This document shows, piece by piece, positions 1 through 53,229 of a stretch of 61,749 nucleotides of DNA. The notes under the pieces were generated by a model. That model did not search any database, was not told the origin of the DNA, and was given only the letters and a program-made list of their open reading frames with translations. Position numbers and translations under genes: made by a program. Position 1 is the stretch's first letter, and the number at the start of each line of letters is the position of its first letter. The DNA comes from Negaprion brevirostris (lineage: Eukaryota): positions 30,854,103-30,915,851 of the forward strand of contig JARDVH010000163.1 of the NCBI GenBank assembly GCA_030324005.1, written 5' to 3'.

Positions 1-190
1 TAGCAGGTTAGTTGTAAAGACTCACATTCTAATCAGTAATCTGTAAACTGTGTGTGCTGTTATATGCTCTGTCTGAGGCCAGAACTCTCCATTCAACTGA
101 CGAAGGGGCAAACCCCAAAAGCTTGTGAGCTTACTATCAGATAAATTGGTTGGACTTAAACCTGGTGTTGTCAGACTTCTTACTGTGTAC
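1..190 (+). mobile_element. Penelope-like element terminal repeat (pLTR) fragment, family 1
   Basis: Shares 'ggacttaaacctggtgttgtcagacttcttactgtg' with copies at 11.2, 16.6 and 52 kb; 11-62 is homologous to the reverse complement of ~16500-16560; carries a decayed hammerhead motif. Confidence 0.75.
92..128 (+). ncRNA. Decayed minimal hammerhead ribozyme motif
   Basis: CTGACGA(97-103)-A-GGGG caaa CCCC-AAAA(GAAA mutated)-GC-TT-gtga. Confidence 0.55.
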
Positions 191-654
191 ACTCATACCT
201 CAGCAATGTTATTCAATTCGTTTGAGATTTAAAACTAGGTATGCCGAAACATGAGTACCATCAACAATAATTCAACCCAATGATGATCCATAATTTAATC
301 TCCAGGTAATTATTTCAACAGTAATTAATTGATAAAACATCTGTATAGTTATCTTGGCCGGAATGAGATGTCTCTGTCCCTTAGGCTCATGCTCTGTGTT
401 CATCAAAGTACAATCTGTCACCTGAAGTGAGTTGAGATGTGTTGAGTGGTAAATTCAGGTCAATGAATTGCCTAACCAGTATCAAATCAGATCACGTCAG
501 TTGGAAGTGGTAGGGGCATGCATGGTGCATATGGTTAACCAGTACCCAGTGTTTCAAATTCTTTCCGATCACAATAATAGTGAAGGTAAGCAAGTGTGGT
601 ATAAAGGTTAACTGGAGGTCTCAGGTGTCATTGAAAAGCAGAGAAGCAGGCTGA

Positions 655-1976: not shown

Positions 1977-2818
1977 TATGTGTGCCTTGTACAGGAATGT
2001 TGGTATATAGAACAAGAGTTTGGCTTCACTCTATAAACTTAATCCGTATATTTGTTTCCAGGTGCTATATTGTGTTGATAACGATGAATGAGAATTAAAT
2101 GTTGAGGAATGAAAGTAAATTAAGGGGATATTATTAGTTTTTACAGAATATGTCTACAAAACAGTCTGTCAGTTTCTGTGGCTGAAGCACTGACAGCAGA
2201 ATAATGATGGAAATAATTACACAAAATTATCTTGCACTATGTAATAATGAGCAGGTTACAGAGGTGAAACCTGGGCAGCAGGTAATTCCTTCATCTGTTT
2301 TTTCTTTGCTCAGTAAGATTCGGCAGGTTTACTTGGCACAAACTGTGGCTTGGTAAATGGAGGTCAGAGGCCATTTGCCACCAGCAGGTAATAACAAAAC
2401 CCCAGTCGTAAAAGCCTGGTATTAGTGCGTCTGTCATCAGCTGCTCTTTGTGTTGCGGCCTCAGACTGGAACATGAGTGGATCACTCATCAGTTAAGTGA
2501 GAGCTAAAATTACAATTCAAACAAAGTCCTCTTTTAGTGGGAATTGCAACTAATTAAAGCAGCTAATTAAGTAACGCAACACTCTGATTTGCTTCAAAAC
2601 AGGCATTTGAACGTTTGTTATGGGCACAACTTTCTAGACCAGGTGTGTTGCTCACTTTAAAGTAGGCTAAGAAGGGTCACAAACTGCATATTACATAAAA
2701 GTAATTTCAATAACTTTTGAACTTGTTAGAGGTGAGTACTGAATGAATTCTGAATCCAAGAACTGTGCCTTGGCCAGTTTAACTAATTCACTCATCCTGA
2801 CCCAGTTCAAATAGACAT

Positions 2819-2910
2819 AATGTGGAGGTGCCAGCGTTGGACTGGGGTAAACACGGTAAGAAGTCTCACAACACCAGGTTCAAGTCCAACCAATTTATTT
2901 GATAGTAAAC
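2819..2910 (-). mobile_element. Penelope-like pLTR end, family 1 (runs into gap)
   Basis: Reverse complement of the family 3' end 'cttcttac..tgtttaccccagtccaacgctggcacctccaca'. Confidence 0.8.
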
Positions 2911-4625: not shown

Positions 4626-5618
4626 CTGAGTATTTGTCTCATACTCGAATATAAAATGTTGGGAGGTTGCATTTGTGTTTGGTCCAAAAGGATTAGTCTG
4701 TGAATATACCTAAACTGTATGCTCTTAAATCATGTGTATTTCAACAAATCAAAAGATTGTTACAGCTGAGAAAGTCCATTTGGTTTGTTTAGTGATCCAT
4801 ACAAAAGCTCCCTTAAATGCAGCCCGGTTTAAATTAATTTATGGTTAGAAATTGGGAAACAAGAAGAGTTTTAGAGAGGAAGATATTTTTGTAATGAAAT
4901 TGGTTATGAGCAACCTTTCAGGAGATCAATTACTATAAAGGTTTTGTAAGTGGCTGCAATTAAGACTAAAACTTCACCAATGAGTTTACAGTTACATGGA
5001 TCAATCCAGGCATTTTCATCAAGTGATGTTCAAATGGAGACAAATATGCTTGAGTAATGTAGAGAGCCATTGTTCCTGAAAGTTACACGTGGATGGCATT
5101 GAAGGAACAGGAAACATGCTGCAGGCCACGCAGACGTTGCAAGTTAGCTCAGAGTTTCAATAGCACCTCACATCAAAGGTTTACATTTCATCCAAAGGGA
5201 TCAGTTGACAAGGCCTCAAGTGACTGTAATCTGACATGGTTTGACACATATCACATAGACCACTTGTAAATATATATCAAAGTCACCAGTACGGCAGATG
5301 AACTTCGTACCCACTTAGTCACTGGCTCACAATGCCTGTCCACAAACAGCTGGAAAAAACATTAGTCACGCCTTACTAAATGATCTGAAATAAAATAGGG
5401 TTTGAAAAAAACCACAATGTCGATAGGTCAGTACAGACTGTAGATTAAATATTTTAGGTCTTGTATTACACATACTCTGACAGTCTAACTAATGTAATAT
5501 TCCTGTGTGTTGCATTAAAGAATGGATAAATAAAATAGTCATCCAGCTGATACCTGTAATGATTTCCATACAATAACCTCATTGGAGGTTAGAATGATAT
5601 GGGAATATAGTTCAGTTT

Positions 5619-5870
5619 CAGTGGTACAGTGGTTAGCACTGCTGCTTCACAGTGCCAGGGACCTGGGTTCGATTGCCGGTTCGGGTCATCGTCTGTGTGG
5701 AGTTTGCACATTCTCCTCGTGTCTGCATGGGTTTCCTCCAAGTGCTCCGGTTTCCTCCCACAGTGCTAGTTAGGTACGTTGACCCGAACAGGTGACAACT
5801 CGGGGAATTTCACAGTAACTTCATTGCAGTGTTAATGTAAGCCTTACTTGTGACTAATAAATAAACTTAA
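5619..5870 (+). mobile_element. V-SINE with alternative ('gtaagcctacttgtgac-aataaa') tail
   Basis: tRNA head with B box ggttcgattgcc, V-domain, tail ttcattgcagtgttaatgtaagccttacttgtgactaataaataaac. Confidence 0.85.
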
Positions 5871-11065: not shown

Positions 11066-11102
11066 TCACAAGCTTTCAGAGTGCTGCTCCTTCATCAGGT
11101 GA
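11066..11102 (-). ncRNA. Minimal type I hammerhead ribozyme motif
   Basis: Minus strand: tcac-CTGATGA-A-GGAG cagca CTCT-GAAA-GC-TT-gtga; core intact, stem I tcac/gtga. Confidence 0.75.
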
Positions 11103-11166: not shown

Positions 11167-11203
11167 TCACCTGAGAAAGGAGCAGCACTCCGAAAGCTCG
11201 TGA
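11167..11203 (+). ncRNA. Hammerhead motif with mutated core (CTGAGAA)
   Basis: tcac-CTGAGAA-A-GGAG cagca CTCC-GAAA-GC-TC-gtga; conserved G8 lost. Confidence 0.6.
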
Positions 11204-16716: not shown

Positions 16717-17382
16717 TTGTCTAGTGGTAAACAGTACAGTCCCAAGCATTTCTTCAAATGAAGATGGCAACTGAGTCGCAACCATAGCTAACAATTGTTA
16801 CTGAAAGAATTGATCTGGTATAAATGTCGACTGATCAGAAAAACATTGGTGCCTGCTGTGTTCTAAAAGCCAATGGGTCAAATCCTAAGTCACTTCAATG
16901 GTGTCCAGTGTTATTTGGATGATATTTTAACGACAGGCAATGATGAACAGGAACATTTACAGAACTTAAAAACACTGGAATGTCTAGTGAAGCACACTCG
17001 TCGTGTGAAGAAAGAAAAGTATGAACTTTTCAAGTCATTGGTTAGCTTTCTAGGCTATGAAATTGATAAGGGCAGACTCCAGAAAGAACCTAAGAAAATG
17101 ACTGCGATTTTAGATGCGCCTAGAATATATCACAACTGAGATCTATTTTAGGGCACATCAATTATAATGGCAAATTTATTTCAAATCTTGCTAACACATT
17201 AAAACCATTTCATACATTATTATGTGCAAACCAACAATGGATTTGGATTAAAGACTGTGAAAAGGCATAGCGAAGTCAAAAATATACTAACAAAATTGGA
17301 AGAATTAGTTCACTTCAACCTTAATTTGAAAATTCATTTCACATGTGGCACATTTCTCCATGGGGTGGGTGCAGTTGTCTCT

Positions 17383-17747
17383 CAATCCATTGTCTCCCAT
17401 CCATTTACTCCATCTACACTTCCTCTGCCTCAGAAAAGCATAATCAAGGATCCCACGCACCTCGGACACTCTCTCTTTCACCTTCTTCCTTTGCAAAAAA
17501 GTTATAAAACTCTTCAATCACGTACCAACCGACTCAAGAACAGTTCTTCCCTGCTGCCATTAGACTTCTGAATGGACCTACCTTATATGAAGCTGATCTT
17601 TCTCTACATACTGGCTATATTCTGCACCTTCTCCTATCCTTCTCCCCTATATACTCTATGAACGGTATGTTTTGTCTGTATAGCGTGCAAGATGTAATAA
17701 TTTTCACTGTATCCCAATACATGTGACAATAATAAATCAAATCAAAT
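17383..17747 (+). mobile_element. Rex1/Babar-type LINE 3' end inserted in Gypsy RNase H
   Basis: SIIKDPTHLGHSLFHLLP..RTNRLKNS; 3' tail aataataaatcaaatcaaa, same as copies at 31.1 and 47.7 kb. Confidence 0.88.
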
Positions 17748-18045
17748 AGGCACGGTGGCACGATGGTTAGCACTGCTGTCTCACTGTGCCAGAGACATGG
17801 GTTCGATTTCTGACCTGGATTACTGTCTGTGTGGAGTTTGCACGTTCTTCTTGTGTCTGAAGGGGTTTACTCCAGGTGCTCCGATTTCCTCCCACAGTCC
17901 AAAGATGTGCAGGTTAGATGAATTGGCCATGCTAAATTCTACCTCAGTGTAACTGAACAGGTACCGGAGTGTGGCGACTAGGGGATTTTCACATTAGCTT
18001 CTTTGCAGTGTTAATGTAAGCCTGCTTGTGATTAATAAATAAACG
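17748..18045 (+). mobile_element. V-SINE with alternative tail
   Basis: tRNA head (ggcacggtggcacgatggttagc; ggttcgatttc), V-domain, tail gtgttaatgtaagcctgcttgtgattaataaataaac. Confidence 0.88.
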
Positions 18046-30480: not shown

Positions 30481-31055
30481 TTATTGGTTGTGAGAGGCAG
30501 GGAGATATTTTTTCCTGGCATGTCACTGGAAAGGTTGACACAGAGAAAATCATGATGGTGGAGGTTTGCAAAAAGGCTGTGTGCCGATGAGGTTATGGTG
30601 CCCTGGTGTAGTGATCAGTCATGCTGGAGTGGCCCGCTTTGGCTTGGTTGCATCAACTGTAGCCCCAGATTGGTTATCTCCCCAGTTACCCCCTTTCCCA
30701 TTTCAACTCTTCAGCTAGCACCGAACATTGGAAATAAGGCTCTCAGCAAGGTGCTTTTGGGCAGGATTTCTTCTATACAGGGGCTGTTTGAGTCAGAAAA
30801 AACTGACCTCCTTCAAGACCTGGAGACTTTTGGTCGTGGAGAGTAGCAGGATATTAGGCTGGCCAAGTGTGTGCCAATGGACTGTGATCACTCTGAATCA
30901 GAGAACATCCTAAAACTCTGCAGTTGCCTCATCAATTACCCCTCAATATACTATCAATGCTTACTTCAGAAGATGGTCTGGAGGACACAGTCCTACCACC
31001 AATTTAGCCATCATTATCAGATGCCATGGTCGTCACCAATTTAGCCATAGTTATT

Positions 31056-31546
31056 ACCAACTTTTACAAATACACCATAGAAAGCATTCTTTCTGGTTGT
31101 ATCACAGCTTGATATGGCTCCTGCTCTGCCCAAGACCACACGAAATTGCAAAGGGTTGTGAATGAAGCCCAGTCCATCATGCAAACCAGCTTCTCATCCA
31201 TTGAATCTGTATACGCTTGCCACTGCCTCAGAAAGACAGCCAGCATAATCAAGCATCCTGGACATGCTCTCTTCCAGCTTCTTCCATTGGGAAAAAGATA
31301 CAGAAGTCTGAGGGCATGTGTCAACTGGCTCATGAACAGCTTCTTCCCTGCTGCCGTCAGAACTTTGAATGGACTTACCTCATTTTAAGTTGATCTTTCT
31401 CTATATTCTAGCTCCGACTGTAACACTACATTCAGCACCACCCCCTTTCCTTCTCTATAAACAGTATGTTTTGTCTGTATAGCTCACTTGAAACAATAGT
31501 TTTCACTGTATGTTAATACATGTGATAGTAACAGATCAAATCAAAT
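31056..31546 (+). mobile_element. Rex1/Babar-type LINE 3' fragment
   Basis: TNFYKYTIESILSGCITA*YGSC..LQRVVNEAQSI..HPGHALFQLLPLGKRYRSL; (atcaa)n tail. Confidence 0.9.
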
Positions 31547-47703: not shown

Positions 47704-49550
47704 ATTTGATTTTGATTTGATTTATTGTCACATGTATTAACATACAGTGAAAAGTATTGTTTCTTACACAATATGCAGACAAAGCATTTCGTTCATAGTG
47801 AAGGAAACGAGAGAGTGCATAATGTAGTGTTACAGTCATAGCTAGGGTATAGAGAAAGATCAACTTAATGCAAGGTAAATCTATTCAAATATCTGACAGC
47901 AGCAGGGAAGAAGCTGTTCTTGAGTTGGCTGGTATGTGATCACAGACTTGTGTATCTTTTTACCGATGGAAGATGATGGAAGAGAGAACATCCAGGGTGC
48001 GTAGGGTCCTTAATTATGTTGGCTGCTCTGCTGAGACAGCAGGAAATGTAGACAAAGTCAATGGATGGGTGGCAGGTTTGTGTGATGGATTGGGCTACAT
48101 TCACAACCTTTTGTAGTTCCTTGCAGTCTTGGGCACAGCAGGAGCCATACCAAGCCGTGATACAACCAGAAAGGATGCTTTCTATGGTGCATCTGTAAAA
48201 ATTGGTGAGAATGGCAGCTGAAAAGCCAAATTTCCTTAGTCTTCTGAAAAAGTGGACTGACATGCCAAATTTACTTAGTCTTCTGAGAAAATTGTAATAT
48301 AACTTACAATGTNNNNNNNNNNNNNNNNNNNNNNNNNNNNNNNNNNNNNNNNNNNNNNNNNNNNNNNNNNNNNNNNNNNNNNNNNNNNNNNNNNNNNNNN
48401 NNNNNNNNNNNNTTCATGCCATGACTAGCCTTTTGAAGCACTTCATAACGATAGATGTCAGAGCCACTGGCCGATAGTCATTAAGGCACACTGCTTGATT
48501 TTTCTTAGGTACCAGGATGATGGTCATCTTCTTGAAACAGATTGGGACCTCATATTGTTGCAAAGATAGATTGAAGATGTTTGCGAATACTCCCACCAGC
48601 TGGTCTGCACAGATACTGGATACCACATCCGGGCCAGTTGCTTTCTGTGGGTTGACCTTCAAGAAAGCTGCTCTGACATCTACAACGATGACCTCAGATA
48701 TATGTTCATCCAGAGCTTCCAGGGTGGAGGGCATGCTCTCGCTGACCTCCTGCTCAAAAAGGGCATAGAATGCATTGAACTCATCAGGGAGGGATGTGTT
48801 GAAGCTGACGATTTTACATGCCTTCATCTTGTAGCCTGTTACATCTTGCAGACCTTGCCACAGTCGGTGGGGGTTGGTGTGGCTACCTTGGGGCTCTAGC
48901 TTGGTCCAGTACTGAATTTTGGCATCTTTGATGGATCTCCTTAGATCTTATCTAGCTTTCTTGTATAGGTCAGTGTGCTTGACTTGGATGCCCCAGACCT
49001 GGATTTCAACAAACAGTGGATTTTCCTGTTCATCCATGGTTTCCGGTTGGGGAACACATGGATTTGCTTCCTTGGCACACAATCTTCTACACATTTACTA
49101 AAGAAGTCAGTTACTATAGTGGAGTACTTGTTCAGGCTGGGTTGCAGAGTTTTTAACTACTGACCAGTCCACTGACTCCAAGTAACCCTGTAGGAGATCA
49201 TCCAATTCCTCAGACCAACATTGCACAAATTTCTTTGTGGGGTTCTCCGCTTCAGCTTTTGCTTGTAAGCCGGGAGCAGGAGCACAGCCTTCTGGTCTGA
49301 TTTGCCAAAGTGTGGGCGGGCGATAATGCTGTGGGTATGTTAGTTATTTGTGTAGCAGTGGTCGAGGATATTTGGGCTTCTGCTGGAACAGGAGACGTGT
49401 TGCTGATAATTTGGTTGACCTGATTGAAGTCTCCGGCTACAATGAACAAGATCTCGGGATGTTTTGTCTCAAGGCTATTTGTAATGGTACATATTTCGTC
49501 CAGCAAGATCTTCATGTCTGCAAATGATGGGATGTAAACTGCCATCAGCA
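47704..49550 (-). mobile_element. Rex1/Babar-type LINE, 5' truncated (APE end, RT, 3' UTR)
   Basis: ORFs 49252-49551 (AVYIP..FIVAGDFNQ), 48414-48827 (KATGPD..LNDYRPVALTSIVMKCFKRLV), 47940-48263 (NFYRCTIESILSGCITAWYG); (atttg)n tail at 47704-47725. Confidence 0.93.
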
Positions 49551-50825: not shown

Positions 50826-51983
50826 ATTATTATACAATAGAAACTTGTGAAATTAAGGTTTGTGAACAATTATGTGTAAAAGAGAATGTGTATACTAGAG
50901 TATATTTACTTTTGAAAATTGCTGAGTTAAAAATATCTAGCAGTTGATTACTTGTGCACAGGGAATGATTGAAGTCAGAGCTATAGAAGTTTAAAGAACT
51001 AAATATACTCCACAGGCAGAATCCTTTGAAGGCCTCATACTCTGTGGCATAAAGTATCTCAAATAGTTCTACAAACATTTCAGGATAGAAAAAAGTCATG
51101 TTCATTTCTAGAACTTTCTAATTTTCTTTTAAATAGGAAAGAACACATCAAGAGGAACAGAAAACCACACTCCAACTATTTTTAACCTCTTCTGAAAGAG
51201 CTTAATACAGACAGCCGTTTGTGCTTTATTGTTCAATGATTCAATTCTAGTAACACAAAGCTCTTGGCATAAATTTATTCATCCTCTATTTTTCACTCTA
51301 AGGAATGGTAAACAAAAGGGCAAAACAAGAACAAGGCTGTTGCATGCCAAAATGAATAACAATATACCATTAAAGTATTGAATATTCCAAAATATTGTTT
51401 GAACATTTTTTTGCTGGTGATCCATTGAACAAAGATGCCTGTGGCCAACGTTTAGGAGTGTGGGGCATCAAACCGACTGCTGAAAAGGCAGGACAAATTT
51501 ATTGCACTAACCAAATGGAACTTTCAACCTAATGCTTGAATAGATGTACACTGTGCGACTTTGTTGGATTACTTTAGTTGCTGGACTTGAATTGGTTTCT
51601 AGAACCATTGGAAAAGCAATAGAAGAATTTTTAGACTTATCCGTTTCAAATGGTTTGAGTTGAGATTTGAAATGTGAATTTCTTCGCCTTCTTATACAGA
51701 TTGGCATCAAATTCTGTTTCGCTTTTAGCTAAGATTGAACAACAGAGAAGCAGATGACTCACTTTTCTATTTTTCCCTAGTTAGCATTAATGTATCTACA
51801 TAATAAAAAGAAACCATGAGAAGAAGAAAAAGTTCTTTCCAAAAAGCTTATTTAATGAGATAGTCTAAATTATAATTAGGCAGGAACTATCATTATGTGG
51901 GTATGCTGGCGTTGGACTGGGGTAAACACAGCAAAAAGTCTGACAACACCAAGTTTTAGTCCAACCGATTTATTTGATAATAA

Positions 51984-52025
51984 ACTCACAAGCTTTCAAG
52001 GGGACACCCTCTTCGTCAGGTGAAT
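51984..52025 (-). ncRNA. Minimal type I hammerhead ribozyme motif
   Basis: Minus strand: attcac-CTGACGA-A-GAGGG tgtc CCCTT-GAAA-GC-TT-gtgagt. Confidence 0.75.
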
Positions 52026-52169
52026 GGAGNNNNNNNNNNNNNNNNNNNNNNNNNNNNNNNNNNNNNNNNNNNNNNNNNNNNNNNNNNNNNNNNNNNNNNN
52101 NNNNNNNNNNNNNNNNNNNNNNNNNNNNNCAACACCAGGTTTTAGTCCAACCGATTTATTTGATAATAG

Positions 52170-52206
52170 ACTCACGAGCTTTCGAGGGGACACCCTCTTC
52201 GTCAGG
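52170..52206 (-). ncRNA. Hammerhead motif with perfect stem II, 5' stem I arm truncated
   Basis: Minus strand: c-CTGACGA-A-GAGGG tgtc CCCTC-GAAA-GC-TC-gtgagt. Confidence 0.7.
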
Positions 52207-52218
52207 CCAGAACTCTCC

Positions 52219-52260
52219 ATTCACCTGACGAAGAGGGTGTCCCCTTGAAAGCTCGTGAGT
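52219..52260 (+). ncRNA. Minimal type I hammerhead ribozyme motif
   Basis: attcac-CTGACGA(52225-52231)-A-GAGGG tgtc CCCTT-GAAA(52247-52250)-GC-TC-gtgagt; 6-bp stem I with one GU pair; predicted cleavage after 52254. Confidence 0.8.
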
Positions 52261-52681
52261 CTATTAGGAACTATCATTCACAGAGAACTTTGGATTTACC
52301 TTATACTTGCATTTTGTTTTACTTTTGTGTAAGAATATTTTTGTATAAATGTAACCAACAAGTGAATTCAAAGACTCCTAAATCATTTCACTGATGAATG
52401 TTAGTACGAATTTGTTGAGAATGGCCCATATTTGGAAATCAGTAACAAAATCCACACTGACTTTACACTTAAAGGACAGGGTTATAATAGGAACATTAGA
52501 TAAGAGAGTGTTTGCTGGAATGGCTACAAATCTAGTCCCCATCTACAGCCTGAAAACATAATAACTGAATTATACTGAGTATATATTTTGAGTCTCTTTG
52601 GTATATATTTTTGAACAATTTCTATGAATTTGCTTTTATATTCACCCACTGATTTAAATACTTTATATTTGGAATCCAATT

Positions 52682-53101: not shown

Positions 53102-53229
53102 AACATCAGGTTAAAGTCCAAAATATTAAGAAGTCTCACAACATCAGGTTAAAGTCCAAAATATTTACAACTGTACAGGTTTAGAACAGCTTTGGACTTT
53201 AACCTCGTGTTGTGAGACTTCTTACTGTG
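53102..53229. mobile_element. Penelope-like pLTR fragments, family 1 (direct and inverted)
   Basis: aagaagtctcacaacatcaggttaaagtccaaa and its inverse tttggactttaacctcgtgttgtgagacttctt. Confidence 0.75.

Follow-up and report, generated by a model that had tools for sequence, protein, structure and literature searches.

Can a minimal hammerhead ribozyme still cleave its RNA once the element that carried it has been inserted in truncated and inverted form? This question is raised by a motif at positions 52219-52260 on the plus strand of the window, i.e., the whole stretch of 61,749 nucleotides of Negaprion brevirostris DNA that was analysed. Minimal hammerhead ribozymes (min-HHRs) are found in the pLTRs of metazoan Penelope-like elements (PLEs) (Cervera and De la Pena 2014, PMC4209133). 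The analysis leads, with good confidence, to the reading that the motif is a min-HHR from the pLTR of an endonuclease-bearing PLE, copied in inverted orientation as the 5' piece of a short lineage-specific insertion; a predicted hairpin would lock it there, and it is likely inert.

Anatomy of the motif

The motif and its parts are the following:

52219..52260 (+): minimal type I hammerhead motif; core complete, closing pair of stem II G-U
52219-52224 (+): 5' strand of stem I, sequence read at these coordinates
52225-52231 (+): core C3-A9 (CUGACGA), followed at 52232 by an extra A, between positions 9 and 10.1
52233..52246 (+): stem II, 5 bp (52233-52237 with 52242-52246), with a 4-nt loop
52247-52250 (+): GAAA, part of G12-A15.1
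52251-52254 (+): GC-U-C; the palindromic AGCU replaces stem III, C17 is 52254 and the predicted cut is after 52254
52255-52260 (+): 3' strand of stem I

Each piece that a preliminary description of this DNA had named was found in its place, and both stems that it proposed, stem I of 6 bp and stem II of 5 bp, form when the 42-mer is folded alone, with predicted probabilities of 0.89 and 0.97, respectively. The isolated 42-mer is not more stable than its shuffles (z -1.4; 18/200 shuffles fold as well). The hammerhead core pattern has five matches in the window, for 0.07 expected by chance (0/100 shuffles reach 5). Rfam hammerhead models, the check that the preliminary description had recommended, gave no hit at gathering score in the whole window, and among the five hits obtained at E values up to 10 in 51700-52500 there was no hammerhead. 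Hits to miRNA families in this interval were rejected, as they lie far below the gathering score and reflect a long hairpin only.

Several features had been overlooked. The insertion contains two further hammerhead copies, both on the minus strand (C3 at 52205 and 52019); the motif is one arm of a 43-bp inverted repeat; and pair 10.1-11.1 is a G-U in the motif, whereas the sister copy has a G-C. The G-U closing pair of the motif is likely a product of CpG decay. The extra A, previously considered a tolerated variant, is instead the norm of the class: an extra base is a conserved feature of the min-HHRs of PMC4209133, and A occupies the place between positions 9 and 10.1 in 127/130 sampled family copies.

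Architecture and age of the insertion

The motif is part of an insertion spanning 51895-52265, with the following layout:

51882..51894: left target-site duplication, 13 bp
51895..52029 (-): third hammerhead copy (52025-51984, U17, G-U closing pair) and full PLE tail to the longer 3' end
52030..52129: assembly gap of 100 N, in the middle of the insertion
52130..52206 (-): second hammerhead copy (C3 at 52205, G-C closing pair, C17 at 52176), truncated, then part of the tail
52164..52266: inverted repeat, 43 bp with one G-U, whose arms are the motif and its antisense twin; predicted sequestration of the ribozyme
52204..52265 (+): inverted 5' piece bearing the motif, with upstream element sequence from family copies
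52266..52278: right target-site duplication, 13 bp, identical to the left one

The sense of the insert is the minus strand, along which come the antisense of the motif, the second hammerhead (devoid of the 5' strand of stem I), the 100-N gap, the third hammerhead, and the tail. As the motif stands on the plus strand at the 5' end of this minus-strand insert, it is the inverted 5' piece, which meets the minus-strand copy through a 3-base overlap (52204-52206). A search with the core pattern found no second plus-strand hammerhead copy elsewhere in the insertion.

Inverted 5' copies, partial tandems, and an optional tail of 30-40 bp are typical of PLEs (PMC8557442), and the insertion combines 5' truncation, a partial tandem, an inverted 5' copy, and the optional tail. 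Pairs of hammerheads on opposite strands had already been noted in 2014 (PMC4209133). Where a non-LTR retrozyme would be a tandem array of at least two complete units, there is here one partial tandem across the gap, with one unit truncated. Base differences diagnostic of subfamilies were also seen between the left copy (51895-52029, U17 haplotype) and the right copies (52130-52265, C17 haplotype). This haplotype mismatch across the gap suggests that either the insertion drew on two templates or the assembly is chimeric.

In the sequencing runs X2, X6, and X7, single contigs join 51881 straight to 52266, i.e., the site is empty, with flanks that differ from the window by about 3.5% (21/617, 14/390, and 22/617). 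The insertion is, therefore, lineage-specific and not a conserved host element; a domesticated host hammerhead would be kept at its locus across related genomes. X6 carries the same organism code as X1, yet it is as divergent as the other runs. A contig of X1 reaches 26 bases into the insert, for a bridging rule that required 31 bases. Young copies of the family differ by 2.2% on average from their majority.

The element family and its clade

A 30-base word from the tail has 4,735 exact matches in the 2.69-Gb genome, and the reversed control word has none. The copies are dispersed, with two recurring 3' ends about 40 nt apart, which fit the optional tail of PLEs. Assembly gaps lie very often within or beside family insertions (35/60 copies; 22 gaps in the window), and the genome counts given here are, therefore, lower bounds.

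The link to an endonuclease is provided by a gap-free copy (L073), in which the C-terminus of an endonuclease is followed by a non-coding repeat of about 230 nt and then by a hammerhead of the motif's subfamily and the tail. The Pfam GIY-YIG model matches copy L065 with 25.2 bits, above the cut-off of 22.6, and copy L182 with 20.8 bits, below it; L074 gave no GIY-YIG hit. Upstream in copy L181, broken frames resemble the end of a reverse transcriptase when judged by eye; a Pfam search with this reverse-transcriptase-like piece gave no hit. A CX4CXXC linker precedes the endonuclease in L181 and L182, which belong to sister subfamilies and not to the exact subfamily of the motif. Since a CX2-5CxxC linker is the mark of Neptune and Nematis (PMC8557442), the linker motif, taken alone, points to one of these two clades for the family.

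Conservation and covariation across the family

Family copies were picked by anchors located upstream of the motif, so that the core itself was not selected for in the sampling. Two anchor samples were used, the first 91 of 376 and the first 92 of 3,796 matches listed, yielding 66 and 69 complete copies, respectively. Gaps, deletions, or truncation removed 25/91 and 23/92 anchors, and one duplicate and four unparsed copies were then dropped from the 135. The final set thus holds 130 parsed copies of 134 distinct ones, among the matches listed.

The core is complete in 68/130 of these copies and in 48/64 young ones, values slightly inflated by a parse that allowed up to two mismatches per core block. 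Core positions outside CpG deviate in 0-6% of copies, for 5-72% at twelve flank positions. G8 and G12 deviate in 12% and 16%, respectively, rates resembling that of a control CpG in the tail, and a C precedes 14/16 of the G8-to-A and 20/21 of the G12-to-A changes. The palindrome is well kept (G15.2 in 124/130, C16.2 in 123/130 sampled copies). Position 17 is T in 82, A in 39, C in 8, and G in one of the 130 sampled copies, and G was absent there from 100 copies counted by eye among the matches listed.

Compensatory variation is found in stem II. The closing pair 10.1-11.1 is G-C in 97 and G-U in 23 of the 130 sampled copies, pair 10.2-11.2 is G-C in 76 and A-U in 35, and pair 10.3-11.3 is G-C in 67, A-U in 35, and G-U in 22. 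The paired counts of the last two pairs were reached by 0/2,000 shuffles, which ignore the relatedness of the copies, and by mutual information pairs 10.2-11.2 and 10.3-11.3 rank only 37th and 78th among 1,326 column pairs. No covariation was found in stem I among the 130 sampled copies: only its inner 3 bp are kept family-wide, and pair 5 is paired in 69/130 of them. A conserved fold between the motif and the tail was not consistently found among family copies. In young copies (e.g., L118, L124, and L129), the predicted folds often bring the stretch located 15-30 nt upstream of the core into pairing with the end of the short tail, thus enclosing the hammerhead.

The excess conservation of the core, which the preliminary description had named as one test of its proposal, held for shared variants and not for private changes. 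Among 66 young copies, examined without the core mismatch filter, shared variants affect 0/12 non-CpG core and palindrome columns vs. 16/52 flank columns (p=0.028), while private changes amount to 5/778 in the core and 44/3,421 in the flanks, a difference that is not significant (p=0.19). In this modest sample, the shared-variant pattern, an indirect line of evidence, is the one expected if source elements are under selection and inserted copies decay freely. With a core fixed across subfamilies except for CpG decay, a covarying stem II, and a position 17 that is rarely G, source elements have, therefore, likely kept a working ribozyme. Endonuclease link, family conservation, and empty site also agree with the initial identification as a minimal type I hammerhead whose stem III is a palindrome, carried by a young insertion of Penelope type.

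Insertion ends and the state of the template

Whether the RNA that is copied into the genome has been cut can be read from where the insertions start. Nested patterns sharing a common tail end, and starting 5 nt after the cut site, at it, or 5 nt before it, have 6,855, 5,085, and 4,467 matches genome-wide, respectively. The step across the cut site keeps 4,467/5,085 young copies (88%, a loss of 12%), whereas the control step just downstream keeps 5,085/6,855 (74%, a loss of 26%). A pile-up of 5' ends at the cut site was thus rejected: with a smaller loss across it than at the control step, copies do not begin at the cut. Since 4,467/5,085 copies run through this site, insertions are likely templated by uncut RNA.

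Further upstream the counts fall smoothly, with 3,299, 2,363, and 1,729 matches for 21-base words that start about 12, 35, and 65 nt before C3, respectively; no sharp edge of 5' ends is seen in these counts at the upstream boundary of the motif. An apparent drop to 376 matches upstream was discarded, a longer and haplotype-specific word being responsible for it. For 60 copies crossing the cut site, 35 ends were scored as hidden by a gap, and a small excess at the cut site could, therefore, be missed. The other 25 comprise 8 copies ending inside the motif, 14 ending at scattered positions up to 25 nt upstream, and 3 ending further away; one copy with an internal deletion (L317) was reassigned by eye in this 14-vs-3 split.

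Six of the 60 copies (L279, L281, L285, L290, L310, and L318) have their end only a few bases away from the stem III palindrome, and in four this end is an inverted junction. Fold-back may start from the palindrome; the excess is small and the search anchor lies at this very place. Inverted junctions near the motif that were retrieved with a palindromic query were excluded as evidence.

Folding of the motif in its context

The preliminary description held that the copy at 52219-52260 cuts after 52254, a claim that folding in context does not bear out. Paired with its antisense twin, the motif is predicted to form a hairpin of 43 bp and -86.7 kcal/mol (z -16), and in a plus-strand read-through transcript the antisense arm is made before the motif. 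The predicted probability of stem I accordingly depends on the transcript start, falling from 0.68 for a start at 52206 to 4e-7 at 52197 and about 1e-40 at 52130. About 20-30 nt of upstream sequence are enough to bring it from 0.89 to below 1e-6, and the motif would fold in a transcript that begins in the hairpin loop (about 52207-52218), with stem I at 0.68 and stem II at 0.85. As the insertion also offers no plus-strand partner, cutting at 52254 in place is unlikely, a call that is based on equilibrium folding.

Dimers are not favored by the calculated energies either: the double hammerhead reaches -20.1 kcal/mol vs. -23.2 for two monomers and -27.9 for an alternative duplex, in a nearest-neighbour model that omits tertiary contacts. 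With its downstream sequence, the third copy is predicted to misfold for the most part (stem I 5e-5). In the family, when 40 nt upstream and 52 nt downstream are included, both stems exceed 0.5 in 16/49 young and 2/20 old copies with an intact core.

Other features of the window

The inverted layout recurs in two older PLE insertions, at 11019-11104/11165-11250 and 16345-16439/16630-16723, which have other forms of stem II. Complete hammerhead cores stand at 11098 (-) and 16465 (-), and the plus-strand partner near 11180 is damaged. Two further members of the young group are present, one at about 60-200 (+) with a G12-to-A change and one at 2812-2910 (-) that is cut off by a gap. A tail-only PLE insertion, made of a short tandem and an inverted copy with no visible hammerhead, occupies 53102-53229, about 840 nt from the motif.

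An abundant tRNA-like SINE family, which we take to resemble shark HE1, is found at 1707-1908, 5615-5816, 17749-17950, and elsewhere. None of the 30 open frames of at least 105 aa in the window has a clear match to a host gene family. A weak RNase H-like hit, below cut-off, was obtained at 17203-17568 (+), and an ALKBH8_N hit at 47943-48311 (-). The latter frame lies in a repeat present again at 31051-31481, so both hits are likely remnants of retroelements.

Mechanism and alternative explanations

In active source elements, the AGCU palindromes of two hammerheads on a tandem transcript would pair, completing stem III, and cleavage after position 17 would follow, likely at a slow rate and likely assisted by the element's protein. 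The endonuclease of the element would nick the target, and reverse transcription would begin within the tail, some 50 or 90 nt 3' of the cut site. Copying would pass through the uncut hammerhead, stop early, and be finished with an inverted piece. The copy at 52219-52260 would have been silenced by the formation of the hairpin.

Could this locus nevertheless cleave? Plus-strand RNAs might pair through AGCU and be cut after 52254, for the core and C17 are complete, the isolated stems I and II are predicted to form (0.89 and 0.97), CUC is a listed cleavable NUH triplet (PMC3138052), and thousands of family copies could supply a partner in trans. However, the upstream antisense arm, made first, is predicted to capture the motif, the insertion holds no plus-strand partner, and the closing pair is G-U. 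The minimal hammerheads tested in PMC4209133 were, moreover, inactive as monomers and of low activity as dimers, and a site that is empty in three other runs indicates no conserved host role. We thus consider an active copy very improbable. The minus strand offers the only same-strand pair at the locus, arranged head to tail: the 5' half of the third copy, which provides the stem I strand missing from the second, could join the 3' half of the latter into one hammerhead cut after 52176, an arrangement derived from the double-hammerhead model of PMC4209133. Yet the second copy follows the antisense of the motif and, judging from the plus-strand fold, should enter the same inverted repeat, while the third copy mostly misfolds with downstream sequence (stem I 5e-5). 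Besides, the two copies differ at four bases and are separated by the gap, so the tandem itself may be a product of the assembly; of all the readings weighed, this one appears the least probable.

A more general objection is that the motif would no longer be a ribozyme even in source elements, and would persist as a protein-binding or promoter structure, or by hitch-hiking. Insertions indeed do not start at the cut site; in the anole system, mutation of the catalytic site did not abolish insertion in vitro, and RNA reads with an end at the cut site were absent (PMC11167929); and related PLE clades spread without hammerheads (PMC8557442). Nevertheless, the conserved bases are the catalytic ones, the U, A, or C at position 17 avoids G as the cleavage rule demands, and the anole hammerhead does cut when its protein is present (PMC11167929). 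Loss of catalysis in the source elements is, therefore, given scarcely better chances than the minus-strand unit, and slightly poorer ones than activity of the plus-strand copy. We retain the min-HHR of an endonuclease-bearing PLE, inverted and probably inert at this locus. A further and more speculative proposal, which we put forward tentatively and regard as rather unlikely in its entirety, would reconcile a core selected in source lineages with insertions made from uncut RNA: the hammerhead could be a gated switch acting outside the insertion step, which would cut only tandem or protein-bound transcripts and thereby sort RNA between template and other fates. If so, the stem II and position-17 variants of the AGCU/CUH form would constitute a library for studying PLE hammerhead function in vivo.

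Significance and comparison with known systems

Taken singly, the locus matters little: truncated copies of this known motif number in the thousands, and the one here is likely inert. The purpose of PLE hammerheads is described as an open question (PMC8557442), and the family-level result is of modest value in this respect. The lack of an insertion-end pile-up at the cut site genome-wide agrees with the in vitro result obtained for anole, in a different clade and in vivo. No paper on this hammerhead family was found in the literature searched, and supplement file 2 of PMC4209133 makes no mention of shark, Callorhinchus, or skate. In PMC6155905, 'shark' refers to the shape of a motif only.

The class of the motif, its extra base, its palindrome, and the opposite-strand pair are already known from PMC4209133. 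Like the min-HHRs described there, the family combines CUGANGA with one extra base, a G10.1-C11.1 pair, a palindrome in place of stem III, and a short stem I; it sits in a repeat after a reverse transcriptase-endonuclease frame, mostly as single truncated copies, with another copy in opposite orientation at the 5' end. Stem II, with 4-5 bp here, is shorter than in those min-HHRs. Most vertebrate rows of PMC4209133 have ACGU and GUH, unlike the present family, which has AGCU and CUH; the painted turtle row shows the same G-C-U-U after GAAA (AGCU-U end). The small PLE hammerheads of Lunse et al., as reported in a review (PMC6765202), cleave as dimers, as is proposed here for the source elements, and share with the present family a palindromic and extremely short stem III.

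Non-LTR retrozymes, which Li et al. (bioRxiv 10.64898/2026.07.22.740005) report from a single Chondrichthyes genome, share with the family a type I hammerhead related to those of PLE pLTRs. They differ from it as tandem arrays of at least two complete units, in contrast to a dispersed, truncated, and inverted insertion of a family joined to an endonuclease frame. As for the Neptune and Nematis clades of endonuclease-bearing PLEs (Craig et al. 2021, PMC8557442), the insertion described here stands out against them by a clean 13-bp target duplication in non-repetitive DNA.

The closest functional parallel is offered by the Poseidon element of green anole (PAc), for which uncut RNA is the main substrate and whose hammerhead needs the element's protein to cut (Frangieh et al. 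2024, PMC11167929). Unlike PAc, which belongs to the Penelope/Poseidon clade, the present family has the linker zinc-finger motif of Neptune/Nematis. It nevertheless shares with PAc a pair of 3' ends separated by a few tens of bases, which delimit the tail, and, probably, insertion templated by RNA that is uncut at the hammerhead, as judged in vitro on one element for PAc and from a genome-wide count here.
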